64,000 nucleotides of DNA, from assembly GCA_964637115.1 (NCBI GenBank), contig CAZWVL010000008.1, positions 10,268-74,267 on the forward strand, in the 5' to 3' direction. Both the position numbers and the translations under genes were made by a program. Shown here in pieces: positions 22,095 to 64,000 of this stretch (its first letter is position 1; each line of letters opens with the position of its first letter). The notes beneath the pieces were generated by a model. That model did no database searches. It had not been told where the DNA came from and saw only the letters and a program-made list of their open reading frames with translations. This stretch comes from an uncultured Methanosarcinales archaeon (GTDB taxonomy: Archaea > Nanobdellota > Nanobdellia > Woesearchaeales > ARS49).

Positions 22095-25000
22095 TTATTT
22101 ATTTCTACGAGAATACCAAATGCCTATAATTGCCAGAGCGATAAGGATAAGCAACAAAATCCACCACAACCAGTTCACAGAACTGGGTTCAACTGCCACA
22201 GCGCCAGTAATTTCTCCTCCAGCAAATGAAGAGACCTGCTCAGGAATAAACGCCGGAATAGGCTTTTTTGATTCATCTGAAGCAAGCGTTGCGCCACCAC
22301 CAAAACTGCCAGGTCCTGGCTGCGCAGCAGGAGCTGCTGCAGGTTCGCCTCCAGTAGGAGGACCGTGACCTGTTGAAAGAGGACGGTGACTCGAACCGCC
22401 ACCTCCGCCGCCTCCACTACCGCCAACAGATGCAGGAGCAGGAGCTGCAACGACACTAACATTGCGTACGGCCTGTGCAGAATTTCCTGAAGAGTCAGTA
22501 ACGTCGTAAGTAACATTATATGTGCCGACAACAGAAAAGTTAACGCCATTGGTTACAACAATAGATCCTGTAACGTTTCCGTCAAAATTGTCTGAAGCTG
22601 TCGCGCTGGCGTCAACATAAGAAGAACCAACTGTGATTGTGGCCGGATTAGAGCCTAAGATAGTGATAACAGGAGGCGTTGTGTCAACAACATTAACAGT
22701 TCTCGTAACTTGAATTGCGACGTTACCTGAACTGTCAGAAACATCATACGTGACGATGTAAGCTCCTAAAATACTCGTGTCCACTGGGTTAACGGTCACA
22801 ATTGAACCAGTAATATTGCCATCATAATTGTCATCGGCAGTTGCACCATCATCAACATAAACACTGCCTGCTTCCACAGTCACAGGGTCAGAGCCAACCA
22901 AAGAAATAACTGGCAAAGTCGTATCAACAACGTTCACAGTTCTTGTGACTTGAACAGCAGAATTGCCTGAACTGTCAGAAACATCGTAAGTCACAGTGTA
23001 AACTCCAAGAGCACTCGTGTTAACAGGATTAACAACAACAATAGAACCAGTTAGATCACCATCATAATTATCCAAAGCAGTAGCACCATCATCAACATAA
23101 ACACTACCAACCTCAACAGTCACAGGATCACTACCAACCAAAGAAATAACTGGTAAAGTCGTATCAACAACATTAACAGTACGAGTAACTTGAACAGCCG
23201 CATTGCCTGAACTGTCAGAGACATCATACGTCACGATGTAAGCGCCTAAAACGCTTGTATTAACAGGATTAACTGTTACAATAGACCCCGATAAGTCACC
23301 GTCGTAATTATCCAAAGCAGTAGCACCATCATCAACATACACAGAACCAACCTCAACATTTACTGGAGTCGAACCAACTAAAGAGATAACTGGATCAGTA
23401 GTATCAACAACATTAACAGTACGCGTAACCTGAACTGCAGCATTGCTGGAAGAATCGGAAACATCATAAGTCACGACGTAAGCACCAAGAGCACTAGTAT
23501 TAACCGGATTCACAACAACAATAGAACCGGTAAGGTCGCCATCTCCAGCATCCAAGGCAGTCGCGCCATCATCAACATAAACACCGCCAACTTCCACAAC
23601 AACAGGAGTTGAACCAGCTAACGTAATGACAGGAATACCAGTATCAACAACATTAACAGTACGCGTAACTTGAGTAGCCGCGTTACCAGAACTATCAGAC
23701 ACGTCATACGTCACGATATAAGCGCCAAGAACACTGGTATTCACAGGATTAACAACAACAATAAAGCTTGTTAGGTCGCCATCATAATTATCAAAAGCAG
23801 TCGCACCATCATCAACATAAACACTACCAACTTCAACATTCACAGGAGTTACGCCAACCAAAGAAATAACCGGATCAGTAGTATCAACAACATTAACAGT
23901 TCTCGTAACCTGAACAGCAGCATTACCAGAACTGTCAGACACGTCGTAAGTCACAATGTAAGCACCAAGAGCACTGGTATTCACAGGATTAACAGTAACT
24001 ATAGAGCCGGTAAGGTCACCATCTCCCGCATCAAAAGCAGTCGCACCATCATCAACATACACAGAACCAACCTCAACATTTACTGGAGTTGAACCTGTTA
24101 ACGTGATAACCGGCACACTGGTGTCAACAACATTCACTGTACGCGTAACCTGAACTGCAGAATTACCAGAACTATCAGAAACATCATAAGTTACGGTGTA
24201 AGCGCCAAGAGCACTGGTATTAACAGGATTAAAAGTAACAATAGCGCCAGTCAGATCACCATCGTAATTATCAAGAGCAGTTGCGCCATCATCAACATAA
24301 ACGCTACCTACTTCTATATTTACTGGAGTTGAGCCAGCCAAAGAAATAACCGGATCAGTAGTATCAACAACATTAACGGTACGAGTAACCTGAACAGCAG
24401 AATTACCAGAACTATCAGAAACATCATACGTAACAACATACGCGCCAACAACGCTCGTATTAACAGGATCAACTGTTACGATAGAACCTGATAAGTCACC
24501 ATCGTAATTATCCAAAGCAGTGGCACCGTCATCAACATAAGCGCCGCCTACCTCTATATTTACTGGAGTTGAACCAACCAAAGAAATCACAGGATCAGTA
24601 GTATCAACAACATTAACAGTACGCGTAACTTGAGCTGCGTCATTTCCAGCAACATCAGAAACATCATAAGTAACTATGTACGCACCAACAACACTCGTGT
24701 TGACCGGATTGACAGTAACAATAGAACCAGTCAAATCACCGTCGTAATTATCAAGAGCAGTCGCACCGTCATCAGAATAAACAGAACCAACTTCAACATT
24801 CACTGGAGTTGAACCAACCAAAGAAATAACCGGATCGGTAGTATCAACAACATTAACAGTACGCGTAACTTGAACCGCGTCATTTCCAGCAGCATCAGAA
24901 ACATCGTAAGTCACGATGTAAGCGCCAAGAGCACTAGTATTAACAGGATTCACAACAACAATAGAACCGGTAAGGTCTCCGTCAACATTATCCAAAGCAG

Positions 25001-34472: not shown

Positions 34473-34961
34473 TTACTTATTTTTAATATATACTTTATAT
34501 TGGGCGAGATCAGGAATTAATTCAACAACAACGTCCTTTCTCTGAATAGCTGGGAAAAATTTATCCATACTAACTCTTTGTGAATTATCCATCCAGCGCC
34601 TTCCCGCACTATATTCTTCAGCTGCTACATGTGCCATATACTGAATATCGCCTTCTGTAACCCCTTCCCAAATTTGTTCACAAATCCCTCGTTGTTCATC
34701 TGCACCTTTTGTAAATCTATAAATCTTTGGTGTTACGGGTTGACGATGTTTTTTATGTTGAATCATTATTTGAATCCACATCATATATTGATGAGTACTT
34801 TTATTTAATTGAAATTCATTCCAGAACTCTACACCAGCATATTCTAAAGTATCACCAGCATGCCCACTTTTTGCTACAATCTTAGGGAGTAATCCACTCT
34901 GATTTAAGTTAGCCCAAACTCTTTCTTCTAATTGCCGATATCTCTCAGGTTTATCTTTCAT
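34473..34961 (-). CDS. AT-rich hypothetical protein
   Basis: 162-aa ORF with a TTTATAAA box about 22 nt upstream. Confidence 0.6.
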   Translation of the reverse strand: MKDKPERYRQLEERVWANLNQSGLLPKIVAKSGHAGDTLEYAGVEFWNEFQLNKSTHQYMMWIQIMIQHKKHRQPVTPKIYRFTKGADEQRGICEQIWEGVTEGDIQYMAHVAAEEYSAGRRWMDNSQRVSMDKFFPAIQRKDVVVELIPDLAQYKVYIKNK

Positions 34962-35026
34962 GCATTATTGATAATTCATTCGTTTATAAACTTTTCCTTT
35001 TTTGTCACTCTGAAGTTACTAAATTT

Positions 35027-35087
35027 TAAGCATAAGAATAATCTAAAATAAGCATAAGATAATCTTTTTATAGACATAAAGATTAAT
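35027..35087 (+). promoter_or_regulatory. Three tandem 22-bp-spaced repeats (candidate operator)
   Basis: CATAA cores at 35031, 35053 and 35075 (TAAGCATAAGAATAATCT / TAAGCATAAGATAATCT / TAGACATAAAGATTAAT). Confidence 0.55.
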
Positions 35088-35112
35088 ATAGCAGTATACG
35101 AAATAGGTATAC

Positions 35113-35337
35113 GTGTTGAGTGAAAGACAACCCAGAAGGCACTTCAAGGAAATCAGGCAGATAATTCTACGCGACCTGCTAATGGGGCAGAGGACAGTCA
35201 ATCAAATAGCTGAAAATACGGGATTAACCTGGCGCACGGTTGACAATCACCTCATCTATCTTTCTGGAAAAGGACTGGTTGAACCAGTATTTGTAAGCGA
35301 ATACGTCAAGATTTACCGGCTGAAGGTGGCCAGATGA
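35113..35337 (+). CDS. Small winged-helix DNA-binding protein
   Basis: RTVNQIAENTGLTWRTVDNHLIYLSGKGLV HTH pattern. Confidence 0.75.
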   Translation: MLSERQPRRHFKEIRQIILRDLLMGQRTVNQIAENTGLTWRTVDNHLIYLSGKGLVEPVFVSEYVKIYRLKVAR

Positions 35338-35562
35338 GCAAACTAAAAGTTCTCATGTTCGGATGCTCATCAAACCTTTGCAAAAGGTTTGATCTAAAGC
35401 ACTCAAGCGGGATTTCCGCTGCGCTACAATCCCGCGACATGTCGGAAATGCTTTGCATTTCCGAGCATGCTCGGAAATCTTTGATTTCCGACATACCAAA
35501 AGCCGTCCCGGCCGCATGGGAGGCAAGAACATGAGCAAACTAAAAGTTCTCATGTTCGGATG
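35334..35562 (+). mobile_element. 165-bp palindromic REP/MITE-like insert between 32-bp exact direct repeats of the GT4 gene start
   Basis: ATGAGCAAACTAAAAGTTCTCATGTTCGGATG at 35334-35365 and 35531-35562; four hairpins in between. Confidence 0.75.
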
Positions 35563-36748
35563 GGAATTCCCACCATTCAAATCAGGAGGACTAGGAACAG
35601 CATGCTATGGACTGACAAAAGGACTGGCGCGAAACGGGTGTGAAGTAACATTTGTCATGCCAGTAACGCCAGAAGGAGCAAAAGCCAAGTTTGTGAAATT
35701 GGTTGGCTCTTCCAACATTGCAAGGAACGTCAAAATAAGAAAAGTCGAAAGTCCGCTGATGGCGTATATGACTTCATCATCTTATGAAGAACACATAACA
35801 ATCAGCGGCAACAAGAAAAAACACGTCTACGGAAGAGACTTGTTTGAAGAAGTGCAGCGTTATGCAGCATTGGCAAAATACATTGCAAAAGAAGAAGAGC
35901 ATGATATCATCCACGCACACGACTGGATGACCTATCAGGCAGGCATAAATGCGAAAAAAGCCAGTAAGAAGCCGTTGGTTGTGCATCTGCACGCAACAGA
36001 ATTCGACAGAACAGGAGAAAATCCAGACGACAGAATCAGCCACATAGAATGGCTTGGACTAAAAGAAGCAGACAGAATAATCACGAACAGCAACTACACA
36101 AAACAAAACATCATCAAGCATTACAAGATACCGGCAGAGAAGATAGACGTCGTGCACTGGGGAATTGATGATGTTGACGTTCCATCATTTGACACGCCTC
36201 TCAAAAAAGATAAGATAGTGCTCTTCCTGGGAAGAATAACACTCCAGAAAGGACCGGACTATTTCATAGAAGTAGCCAAGAAAGTTCTTACATACGAGCC
36301 GGATACGAAATTCGTCATTGTGGGAGACGGAGACATGCTGCCACGCATAATTAATCGCGCGGCAGAACTTGGAATAACAAACAAAATCATCTTCACAGGT
36401 GCGTTGTCAGGAGACGATGTTCATAGAGCATTCAAGACAGCAGACATCTATGTAATGCCAAGCGTCTCAGAACCATTCGGACTTGTTGCACTTGAAAGCC
36501 TGAAAAACGGCACTCCAGTCATTATAAGTAAGCAGAGCGGCGTGGCAGAAGTGCTCAAGCACGCGCTTAAAGTAGACTTCTGGGATATTGATGAAATGAC
36601 CAACAAGATTGTGGCAGTGCTCAGGCATCAAGCACTCAAAGAGGAACTGAAAGAACACGGCATGCACGAAGTGCAAAAGTTCAACCTTGACGAGCCAGCA
36701 CGAAAAGTAAGAGACACGTATCATCACGTCCGAGGTGAGCACGCATGA
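35531..36748 (+). CDS. GT4 glycosyltransferase (glycogen/starch synthase-like)
   Basis: MFGWEFPP..SGGLG, IHAHDWMT, HLHATE, FLGRITLQKGP, MPSVSEPFGLVALE. Confidence 0.9.
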   Translation: MSKLKVLMFGWEFPPFKSGGLGTACYGLTKGLARNGCEVTFVMPVTPEGAKAKFVKLVGSSNIARNVKIRKVESPLMAYMTSSSYEEHITISGNKKKHVYGRDLFEEVQRYAALAKYIAKEEEHDIIHAHDWMTYQAGINAKKASKKPLVVHLHATEFDRTGENPDDRISHIEWLGLKEADRIITNSNYTKQNIIKHYKIPAEKIDVVHWGIDDVDVPSFDTPLKKDKIVLFLGRITLQKGPDYFIEVAKKVLTYEPDTKFVIVGDGDMLPRIINRAAELGITNKIIFTGALSGDDVHRAFKTADIYVMPSVSEPFGLVALESLKNGTPVIISKQSGVAEVLKHALKVDFWDIDEMTNKIVAVLRHQALKEELKEHGMHEVQKFNLDEPARKVRDTYHHVRGEHA

Positions 36749-37962
36749 CTGACGTCTGCCTCTACTTCCAAGTACACCAGCCATTCAGACTGGCACGATA
36801 CACGCTCTTTGATATTGGAAAACACTCAAGATACTTTGACGAAGCAAAAAACAAAGAAATAATGCTCAAAGTAGCGCGAAAATGCTACCTGCCAACGAAC
36901 AGCATAATCAGACAGCTTATTGCGAAACACGACGACTTCAAAGTAACGTACAGCATAACTGGAAGCGCGCTTGAACAATTTGAAAAATACGCACCCAACG
37001 TATTGAGAAGTTTCAAAGAACTTGCAGAAACAGGAGCAGTTGAATTCCTAACAGAAACAAGCAACCATTCACTCTCCGCGCTTGCGGATAAAGATGAATT
37101 TACTTCACAAATAAAAGAACACCAGAAATTAATCAAGAATTACTTTGGACAAAAGCCCAAGATATTCAGAAATACAGAATTAGTTTACAATAATGAGATT
37201 GCCAAAACTGCAGAACAACTTGGTTTCAAAGGCATACTCGCAGAAGGATGGGACTCAATACTAGGATGGCGAAGCCCCAACTACGTCTACAAGGCAGCAG
37301 AAACGCGCAAAATGAGATTGCTGCTCAAGAACTACCGGCTTTCAGATGATGTGGCATTCAGATTCTCCAATAAACACTGGAACAGCTGGCCATTAACAGC
37401 AGAAAAGTACGCAGGATGGATAGCGCCCATACTCGGAGACAGCATCAACCTGTTCATGGACTATGAAACATTCGGAGAGCACCAATGGGAAGACACAGGA
37501 ATATTCAACTTCCTCAAACACTTGCCGGCTGCACTGAAGAAACACAACATAAGCTTCAAACATCCCAGCGAACTGCTGAAAATACGGCCAAAAGAAGAAC
37601 TCGACATCCAGCAGACAATCAGTTGGGCAGATGTAGAAAGAGATACGAGCGCATGGCTCGGCAACAAAATGCAGCAAAGCGCGCACGCACAGATTTACTC
37701 AATTCGAAAAGACGTGCTTGCAAGCGGAGACAGAGAATTACTTGCTTCGTGGAAAAAACTTACGACAAGCGACCATTTCTACTATATGTGCACCAAATGG
37801 TTCAACGATGGAGACGTGCACAAATATTTCAGCCCATACGATACCCCATATGACTGCTTCATCAATTACATGAACATATTGCAAGATATGACGCTCAGAC
37901 TCAAAAATAAACAAGGACTGTTTGAGTCCATTAAAAGATTTGTCAAAGAGGTGAAGTTATGA
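36745..37962 (+). CDS. GH57 alpha-amylase-like glycoside hydrolase
   Basis: YFQVHQP, FRNTEL nucleophile motif, LFMDYETFGEHQW, TSDHFYYM. Confidence 0.9.
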   Translation: MTDVCLYFQVHQPFRLARYTLFDIGKHSRYFDEAKNKEIMLKVARKCYLPTNSIIRQLIAKHDDFKVTYSITGSALEQFEKYAPNVLRSFKELAETGAVEFLTETSNHSLSALADKDEFTSQIKEHQKLIKNYFGQKPKIFRNTELVYNNEIAKTAEQLGFKGILAEGWDSILGWRSPNYVYKAAETRKMRLLLKNYRLSDDVAFRFSNKHWNSWPLTAEKYAGWIAPILGDSINLFMDYETFGEHQWEDTGIFNFLKHLPAALKKHNISFKHPSELLKIRPKEELDIQQTISWADVERDTSAWLGNKMQQSAHAQIYSIRKDVLASGDRELLASWKKLTTSDHFYYMCTKWFNDGDVHKYFSPYDTPYDCFINYMNILQDMTLRLKNKQGLFESIKRFVKEVKL

Positions 37963-63917: not shown

Positions 63918-64000
63918 ATGAACAACAAATTACTATTATTGGGAACGCTCATAGTTATAGCGATAGTTGCAGCAAGCTATTATTATGTTAGTCCGATTAT
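63918..64000 (+). CDS. Partial exported/membrane protein (3'-truncated)
   Basis: MNNKLLLLGTLIVIAIVAASYYYVSPI runs off the window. Confidence 0.5.
   Translation, partial: MNNKLLLLGTLIVIAIVAASYYYVSPI

Follow-up and report, generated by a model that had tools for sequence, protein, structure and literature searches.

We analysed a 64,000-nt stretch of contig CAZWVL010000008.1 (C8) of an uncultured Woesearchaeales archaeon, hereafter the window, in which the start of a GT4-family glycosyltransferase gene is present twice, on either side of a short, hairpin-rich insert. The genome assembly (G000) comprises 1.27 Mb in 27 contigs, has a G+C content of 43% and is 98% complete. The insert lies in an operon, between a winged-helix regulator gene (wHTH) and the complete GT4 gene, where it is associated with an open reading frame (ORF) of its own. 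The features of the locus, in window coordinates, are as follows.

35113..35337, + strand: winged-helix (ArsR/HTH_5-like) regulator gene, wHTH, 74 aa (ORF list; Pfam HTH_5, E=1e-5)
35334..35365, + strand: direct repeat copy 1, an orphan duplicate of GT4 nt 1-32 (10 codons plus 2 nt; exact repeat)
35334..35534, + strand: 66-codon spacer ORF across the insert (ATGA overlaps with the wHTH stop and the GT4 start)
35366..35440, + strand: module 1, the family core, consisting of hairpin 1, linker ATCTAAAGCACTCAAG, hairpin 2 and GACAT (inverted repeats, nhmmer)
35369-35379 and 35383-35393: arms of module 1 hairpin 1
35407-35414 and 35428-35435: arms of module 1 hairpin 2
35439..35494, + strand: module 2, a nested double palindrome (inverted repeats I3, I4 and I9)
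35495..35530, + strand: tail, with a 4-bp hairpin GCCG/CGGC, GGGAGG at 35518-35523 and a 7-nt spacer before the GT4 ATG
35531..35562, + strand: direct repeat copy 2, the true GT4 start (exact repeat)
35531..36748, + strand: GT4-family glycosyltransferase gene, glycogen-synthase-like, 405 aa (Pfam Glycos_transf_1, 1e-36; Glyco_transf_4; Glyco_transf_5)
36745-37962: GH57 gene, coupled, 3′ of GT4 (Pfam GH57, 1.7e-76)

The two repeat copies are identical over 32 nt, with a start-to-start spacing of 197 nt. Copy 1 is joined to the native upstream gene, matching the empty alleles described below: the TGA of wHTH overlaps the ATG at 35334 (ATGA), and this ATG opens the spacer ORF, whose own TGA overlaps the GT4 ATG at 35531. 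A preliminary description made from the letters of the window had reported the repeat and the overlaps, and the sequence and the ORFs agree with it on the exact 32-bp repeat around a 165-bp multi-hairpin insert, on both ATGA overlaps and on the GGGAGG 7 nt before the second ATG. Matches of the GT4 product to NCBIfam models fell under their cut-offs.

The insert measures 165 nt (35366-35530) and contains several perfect inverted repeats of 10-11 bp. The insert region folds with a predicted energy of -90.4 kcal/mol (z = -6.7), a value as good being found in 0 of 200 shuffles, and among direct repeats spaced 50-350 nt apart, scanned for across the whole of G000, the GT4 locus tied for the highest density of folding energy (-0.40 kcal/mol per nt). 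It is a composite of a two-hairpin module 1, a nested double-palindrome module 2 and a short tail that carries GGGAGG. Module 2 reads ATGTCGGAAAT, loop, ATTTCCGA, GCATGC, TCGGAAAT, loop, ATTTCCGACAT or, viewed as a pair of palindromes, ATGTC, hairpin, GAGCATGCTC, hairpin, GACAT. It is nested at the GACAT^AC point of module 1, exactly as in copies at tRNA-Gly genes, and stand-alone copies of it occur elsewhere in G000 and on an unrelated metagenome contig (L119). The insert lacks terminal inverted repeats, all inverted repeats being internal, and its left end CTCATCAAAC and right end GGCAAGAAC are non-complementary; module 2 by itself has the ends ATGTCGGAAA/TTTCCGACAT. A cmscan of 34900-35800 against Rfam returned nothing with an E-value below 3, and the 66-aa spacer product had no Pfam match. 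Elsewhere in G000 (C9:27269-27500), at least four TCCTGAGACCGTCCCAGT-like units are found in 230 nt of hairpin-dense DNA.

Comparison with related genomes establishes that this is an insertion for which empty alleles exist. Twelve other genomes of the same genus carry a single copy of the 32-mer together with the native wHTH-ATGA-GT4 overlap (empty GT4 sites are listed for G002, G003, G004, G006 and G008-G014, including the unpublished G010). Moreover, run X4, a freshwater sediment sample from a second study, yielded a 298-nt contig with a depth of 32.6 that joins position 35333 to 35531 with 0 differences in the flanks; the insert-specific tail has a depth of only 0.36 in this run. Therefore, the same strain-level sequence exists with and without the insert, the difference being exactly 197 bp, and this allele shows that precise loss, or the reverse gain, occurs within a species. 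The preliminary description had offered an insertion with an unusually long target duplication that leaves the operon working, to be compared with empty sites in relatives. These alleles, and the recurrence of the core of the insert at other gene ends, bear that reading out.

Among the 77 genomes of the family, the GT4 site is occupied only in G000 and G001. The insert of G001 has the same junctions, the same length of 165 nt and the same 197-nt spacing, and is identical to that of G000 at 127 of 165 positions; this identity of 77% is close to that of the genes (75.7%). Both hairpins show compensatory changes between the two genomes. The G001 tail is 36 nt long as in G000, with a co-varied hairpin GCCA/TGGC and the sequence CGGAGG.

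Searches for further occupied GT4 alleles gave none. A scan of metagenomes with a left-junction pattern had 0 matches, and the same pattern in genome contigs gave two matches in bacterial metagenome-assembled genomes, roughly what chance alone would give for a pattern of 19 bases, which we disregarded. A scan with the core of module 2 recovered only the stand-alone copy on L119, which is unrelated. In G082, a hairpin resembling hairpin 2 followed by GACATG precedes GT4; the wHTH gene is longer there, and the hairpin is part of its coding 3′ end and not an element. We also considered whether the duplication had once included the native upstream Shine-Dalgarno sequence, by aligning (semi-globally) the 15-35 nt that precede each copy; p ranged from 0.015 to 0.96 with window and species, which is not robust, and we make no such claim.

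The preliminary description had entered a caveat that the structure might be an assembly artefact. An assembly or binning artefact could arise from a k-mer loop or a chimeric joining of strains. The source is indeed a metagenome assembly, related species co-occur in the same samples, and the scaffolds hold real artefacts: exact 55-nt repeats flank runs of 100 N at four sites (window 63946-64000, within C8:74213-74368; C3:142217; C10:30255; C11:1959). These are scaffold joins with overlapping ends, true artefacts that could pass for duplications. However, four 55-nt repeats bordering 100-N gaps imply that the last k of the assembler was 55, and as the repeat at GT4 is only 32 nt, single k-mers span it. 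Independent Logan contigs from runs X2 and X3, two further samples of one study, cover 35336-35560 and enter both repeat copies with 0 differences, at a depth of 29 against 27-31 in the flanks. Moreover, G001, a separate species with an independent assembly, has the same structure with repeat copies that differ at 2 of 32 positions, and such non-identical copies rule out collapse or looping by an assembler. The caveat can thus be removed, the probability of an artefact being vanishingly small.

Relatives of the insert were sought with an nhmmer profile of module 1 built from seven copies, alongside pattern searches. G000 itself holds four copies: at the GT4 locus, inside the 5′ ends of tRNA-Ala(CGC) and tRNA-Thr(GGT), and free-standing on contig C7. 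More than 20 further copies were found in relatives, and the record titles of the module 1 loci name Woesearchaeota and Nanoarchaeota. An order-wide search with the linker motif matched 17 of 401 genomes, against 6 matches for the reversed control; matches with two mismatches that lacked an nhmmer match were discarded. The GT4 insert is therefore one member of a family. Most copies are bordered by direct repeats of 9-41 nt that duplicate a gene end, and 15 independent loci have a flanking repeat, GT4 and degenerate repeats included. The targets are GT4, eight tRNA 5′ ends (among them Ala-CGC, Ala-GGC, Gly-CCC, Thr-GGT, Ser-UGA and Pro-GGG), three minus-strand tRNA 3′ ends, two other RNA genes and two 3′ ends of coding sequences (CDS). 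Apart from the 32 nt at GT4, the repeats have the following lengths.

tRNA-Ala(CGC): 15-19 nt
tRNA-Gly(CCC): 21-26 nt, degenerate as far as the anticodon loop
tRNA-Ala(GGC): 14 nt
tRNA-Ser: 19 nt
tRNA-Thr: 11 nt
tRNA-Pro: 9 nt
Three minus-strand tRNA 3′ ends: 18, 21 and 35 nt
Two other RNA genes: 17 and 25 nt
Two minus-strand CDS 3′ ends: 20 nt and 38-41 nt

These loci obey common rules. Polarity is fixed: in 15 of 15 loci the GACAT/tail end of the element faces the intact gene, whichever strand that gene is on (two-sided binomial p ~6e-5, with independence of loci judged by eye). The repeat starts at the boundary of the gene: for the 12 tRNA copies whose repeat could be scored, the start falls between -4 and +3 nt relative to the tRNA edge, in GT4 it coincides with the ATG, and at the CDS 3′ ends it lies 4-5 nt beyond the stop codon; in tRNA genes its far end falls in the D-loop, the anticodon loop or the T-loop. 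Moreover, the orphan and gene copies of the repeat co-vary between species at eight sites, namely position 18 of the GT4 repeat (T/T in G000, G/G in G001), position 5 of the tRNA-Ala repeat (A/A in G000, G/G in G001 and G003), two sites in tRNA-Gly and four in a gene of genus g2 (G015 vs G072). Only two sites do not co-vary, both in copy 2 of G001, in addition to a decayed copy in G076. The tRNA-Ala site is occupied in G000, G001 and G003 at an identical junction by different variants, one of which has an extra nested insert, and is empty in G006, G007 and the unpublished G010. Tandem units are present in G009, and copies without a repeat lie between genes on C7 of G000 and on L051 and L053. 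The tRNA-Asn locus of G070 (unpublished), with a degenerate repeat, is counted among the 15 loci and lies outside the 12 scored copies and the alignment (A1) described next. The unpublished G347, G023, G086 and G087 enter the search tallies only, and no conclusion rests on unpublished genomes.

In alignment A1, which holds 22 copies of module 1, 97% of pair cells are paired compared with 86% in shuffles, and 37 cells show a double change compared with 12.2 in shuffles; controls in which the pairing was slid reach at most 58%. Since both the pairing and the two-sided changes exceed the controls, the hairpins are under selection. G-U pairs are nearly absent from their stems: 19 of 22 copies have none, and no copy has more than one. 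Such almost exclusive Watson-Crick pairing is more in keeping with a DNA-level or strand-neutral structure than with a typical RNA switch. The minus-strand RNA folds slightly better in 19 of 22 copies; as the stems are nearly pure Watson-Crick and the minus strand is rich in G+U, the folded strand cannot be assigned from this.

Several loci are described here as observations in their own right. At L083 (G000 C2:148998-149199), module 1 follows nt 15 of tRNA-Ala(CGC), with a 19-nt duplication, and the GACAT of the element is fused to a motif resembling a B recognition element and TATA box (BRE/TATA-like), AAGCTTAAAAA, which is as far from the intact tRNA as a promoter would be. The orphan copy at this locus is preceded by the 14-mer CATAAGCTTAAAAA as well; the genome has no third occurrence of it, and its doubling hints at a former tandem unit. 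At G000 C2:152090-152170, a decayed remnant of module 1 (hairpin 2 and GACAT) adjoins a promoter-like sequence of tRNA-Met, AAGCTTTTTAAG, and the stop codon of the upstream HIT-like gene lies inside the apparent linker of the element. At G000 C21:61-281, 20 nt of the tRNA-Pro(TGG) 3′ end are duplicated 201 nt downstream around a different multi-hairpin insert, the intact tRNA-Pro(TGG) gene being on the left side; this is another gene-end-duplicating family in G000. At L110:1440-1640 (G190 C59), module 1 apparently lies within a tRNA T-loop without a duplication, in the manner of a non-canonical intron. Lastly, for the tRNA-Gly(CCC) gene at L040:677-792 (G007 C2), which has module 1 at its 5′ end, ARAGORN predicts a 45-nt intron at position 37 that holds a GCCGACGAAGTCGGC hairpin resembling those of the nested modules.

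We looked for an enzyme that could mobilise these elements. In a search confined to eight Pfam families, all of them positive in control genomes, G000 had no match to Y1_Tnp (Y1, or HUH, transposase; PF01797), DDE_Tnp_1 (PF01609), rve (PF00665), TnpB (PF07282), Resolvase, Phage_integrase, Cas1 (PF01867) or RVT_1. The RAYT- or Y1-type TnpA partner that the preliminary description had suggested was thus looked for in G000 and not found, and the repeat lengths of 9-41 nt follow no fixed ruler of the kind that might be ascribed to Cas1. Tyrosine recombinases (PF00589) are present in 48 of the 77 genomes of the family and absent from G000, G001, G005, G007 and G013, all of which carry the element. 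The element may be moved in trans by an accessory recombinase of a virus or plasmid, or else by recombination of the host.

Turning to translation, the spacer ORF is open in both G000 and G001, with 66 codons and an equal 197-nt spacing, and a 1-nt length difference of G001 between hairpin 1 and the linker is compensated so that the frame is kept. Across the family, 14 of 22 copies are open in the corresponding frame. Because the peptide is unconserved beyond the 10 duplicated codons, we regard it as a putatively translated spacer and not as a functional protein. In the native state, GT4 would be translated by termination and reinitiation at ATGA, and copy 1 would preserve this overlap after insertion. 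Ribosomes finishing wHTH would restart at copy 1, read the 66-codon spacer through the hairpins, stop on the second ATGA and restart on GT4. The Shine-Dalgarno sequence has a predicted unpaired probability of 0.03 in G000 and 0.42 in G001, and the GT4 Shine-Dalgarno and ATG are predicted to be paired, so that a secondary effect of the insert on GT4 translation is plausible; ribosomes translating the spacer would be brought to the GT4 start and would also unpair it. On this model the GT4 operon probably still functions with the insert in place.

Two further repeats were noted in the window. Upstream of the wHTH gene (35027-35059), TAAGCATAAGA is present twice, 22 nt apart, and G001 has the motifs AAGCATAAG/AAGCATAAC at the matching position; the doubled motif could represent a BRE/TATA-like promoter in two copies or an operator to which the wHTH protein binds. 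At 23065-24838 (C8:33332-35105), several exact repeats of 26-36 nt recur with a period of 240 nt, which suggests a coding region built of tandem repeats.

Taken together, these data make it highly probable that a small, protein-less hairpin element inserted between nt 32 and 33 of GT4 with duplication of the 32-nt start, and that it belongs to a family placed at gene ends with long, variable duplications that leave the gene whole. Once present, the element could be lost, repeatedly, by precise recombination or replication slippage between the repeat copies, and the copies could be kept alike by gene conversion or re-insertion. Loss between 32-nt repeats bridged by hairpins would be mechanistically easy. 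The GT4 tree places G000 with G003 and G006, and G001 with G011; all three of these partners have an empty site. The simplest reading would be an old insertion that was lost precisely several times, the alternative being site-specific re-gain. A recent transfer of the insert between G000 and G001 was considered and rejected, as sliding windows revealed no tract of the flanks in which G000 is closer to G001 than to G003 or G006.

Several points weigh against this reading. The site is occupied in just two species, which by the GT4 tree are not sisters, and therefore at least five precise losses, or else site-specific re-gain or transfer, must be assumed. Mobility is inferred from distribution only, as no enzyme, excised form or active transposition was seen. 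The preliminary description had proposed looking for copies of the 165 nt across the genome; module 1 does recur, in four copies, as does module 2, whereas the full 165-nt composite is single-copy in G000. The catalogue of about 15 loci comes from similarity searches and is non-exhaustive, and the k=31 contigs of X2 and X3 alone cannot exclude minority empty alleles in those samples. Lastly, conservation of the spacer ORF is only suggestive: a shuffled insert keeps the frame open by chance in 6% of trials, and 22.5% of copies are still open after 38 random substitutions.

As to how the element moves, a mechanism that is att-like, cassette-type or homology-anchored suits the anatomy no less well than a staggered-cut transposase. 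We would assign a minor share of the probability to an att-like or homology-anchored cassette, a small share to a long-stagger transposase and the remainder to other mechanisms. The insert could be the footprint of a miniature inverted-repeat transposable element (MITE) or other transposon, in which a DDE-type enzyme makes long staggered cuts at random and only duplications that regenerate a gene end have survived. IS1634 makes long, variable duplications of the staggered-cut type, the repeats of our family vary from 9 to 41 nt, and the intergenic copies on C7, L051 and L053 lack a repeat. Long duplications are also reported for IS1630 (19-26 bp; cited in PMC2853133) and for restriction-modification (RM) gene units, described as insertion with long target duplication, with repeats of 30 to >400 bp (PMC2853133; Furuta, Abe and Kobayashi 2010). 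However, the insert lacks terminal inverted repeats and G000 lacks matches to the DDE (DDE_Tnp_1, rve), Y1 and TnpB families. Random insertion moreover predicts both orientations, whereas the gene is on one side in all 15 loci; it predicts scattered upstream repeat starts, yet these lie no more than 4 nt from the tRNA edge in the 12 scored copies; and it predicts decay of the neutral orphan copies, which instead change in step with the gene copy from one species to another. Long-stagger transposition at random, even with later selection, thus explains none of the polarity, the boundary rule or the refreshed orphan copies, and we consider it improbable. Another mechanism is an att-type mini-cassette, in which a cargo-less unit carrying its own copy of the gene end (attP-like) would be moved in trans by a virus or plasmid tyrosine recombinase, or by host recombination of an excised circle (Campbell-type); cis-mobilisable elements (CIMEs) are known non-autonomous, att-flanked elements. 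The repeats span a tRNA loop to the gene end, give or take a few nucleotides, which is the classic layout of an integrase att site. The fixed polarity, the precise empty alleles, the co-variation of repeat copies as if refreshed and the occupation of the tRNA-Ala junction in three species by variants or nested additions all point the same way, insert and repeat together are about 200 bp, the size of a full attP, and tyrosine recombinases are widespread in the family. On the other side, the five carriers named above have no PF00589 match, the targets (tRNAs, other RNA genes, CDS starts and stops) are too diverse for the specificity of one integrase, no integrase-bearing parent with these hairpins was found and no circle junction was seen. 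We therefore hold this mechanism to be possible, if doubtful.

Two further explanations concern RNA. The second reading of the preliminary description was that the hairpins and the 66-codon ORF are an evolved cis-regulatory leader, a leader-peptide/attenuator for GT4 and GH57. The ATGA overlaps at both ends, the ORF that is open in two species and the predicted sequestration of the Shine-Dalgarno and ATG would suit such a role. As an origin it fares badly, since the insert is missing in most relatives, including 12 genus members and a conspecific strain with the plain overlap, and the peptide is unconserved outside the duplicated codons. Moreover, the core module also sits in tRNA genes and at CDS 3′ ends, where a leader peptide is impossible, there is no Rfam match to the region, and near-pure Watson-Crick stems are atypical of RNA switches; we judge an evolved leader very unlikely. 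A still smaller probability attaches to an intron-like element, in which 197 nt (the insert and one repeat) would be cut from RNA by the archaeal splicing endonuclease at a bulge-helix-bulge. This draws on the L110 copy without a flanking repeat, on tRNA insertion points in loops where archaeal introns occur, and on a 13-bp helix in G000 that pairs copy 1 with the junction of tail and copy 2. However, G001 does not retain that long-range helix, a bulge-helix-bulge motif was not identified (no dedicated search was made), and 197 is not a multiple of 3, the ORF being kept open instead. Splicing would also be unnecessary, because the downstream gene copies are complete by themselves.

The insertion of a family member with duplication of the gene start remains our preferred reading of the GT4 locus. 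A bolder proposal, which at present we think rather unlikely, is that the family represents a new class of minimal mobile DNA in DPANN archaea: cargo-less hairpin cassettes that carry or regenerate the end of their target gene, enter and leave gene termini (tRNA loops, the ends of RNA genes, CDS starts and stops) precisely through an undescribed recombination (by a trans-acting recombinase, or driven by the host and anchored by homology), and have their repeats kept identical by repeated cycles. If the rules of the family hold, that is, a duplication starting at the gene boundary, fixed polarity, refreshed repeats and no known recombinase in the carrier, then DNA enters essential genes harmlessly in a manner that matches no catalogued transposon, integrase or Cas1 system, and does so in some of the smallest archaeal genomes, where every gene counts. 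GT4 is the clearest example in a protein operon, with an insert inside a CDS at a coupled junction and an operon that would still be readable. For annotation of DPANN genomes, such elements can be traps that leave orphan gene starts, tRNA fragments and spurious ORFs of 60-70 codons, and their presence/absence polymorphism could serve as strain markers. Were the new class real, it would be a possible source of non-canonical tRNA introns, split genes and new leaders or promoters. A full-text literature search returned no description of such inserts in DPANN archaea, nor does a 2026 preprint on 208 complete Nanobdellota genomes mention them; this gene-end-duplicating hairpin family is apparently undescribed.

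Compared with known systems, the MITE, the REP/RAYT system, the IS200-derived palindrome-associated transposable elements (PATEs), the casposon/Cas1 system and the attenuator each miss at least one defining feature. Repetitive extragenic palindromic (REP) and IS200 elements make no target duplication, and those of MITEs measure 2-10 bp. With MITEs, REP/REPIN-RAYT, IS200/IS605 PATEs and the SM MITEs of Sulfolobus our family shares small size, lack of coding capacity, hairpin formation, dispersal in low copy number, nested insertions and presence/absence polymorphism. Unlike MITEs, the insert is without terminal inverted repeats and the duplications are 9-41 nt at gene ends instead of a fixed 2-10 bp; unlike REP/RAYT and IS200 PATEs, there are long flanking repeats at 15 loci and no Y1/RAYT partner in G000. 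Strict polarity toward the intact gene further marks our family, and G000 had no match to the DDE families DDE_Tnp_1 and rve. A casposon or Cas1 origin differs in that G000 has no match to Cas1 and the repeat length is variable. Classic ATGA translational coupling with leader-ORF unmasking resembles the locus in the ATGA at both junctions, the spacer ORF through hairpins and the predicted paired start; here, however, the leader is a by-product of insertion, is missing in most relatives and has only a putative regulatory role.

Two other kinds of system are also close. Integration is known to give rise to duplicated tRNA fragments (PMC9897764), and the att elements of tyrosine recombinases in tRNA genes (SSV-, pNOB8- and TKV-type) likewise leave one complete and one partial gene copy, with a repeat running from a tRNA loop to the gene end and occupation of a site in several species, and their precise excision would match the empty alleles seen here. 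They differ from our family, in which the insert has neither integrase nor cargo, G000 and G001 are without a tyrosine recombinase, 5′ ends are used as often as 3′ ends, and starts and stops of protein genes are also targets. In the long target duplications of the Nobusato/Furuta type, which were likewise found by comparing related genomes, the repeat is single-copy in the empty allele and doubled when occupied (at GT4 it measures 32 bp, over the 30-bp criterion of that work), the insert has no transposase or integrase, and the repeat often overlaps a gene end. No archaeal case passed the filter of that study (PMC2853133). Its cases are kilobase-sized, bacterial, one-off RM units, whereas the GT4 family consists of a recurrent, non-coding hairpin module of 70-165 nt, in which polarity is fixed and the repeat begins at the boundary of the gene.

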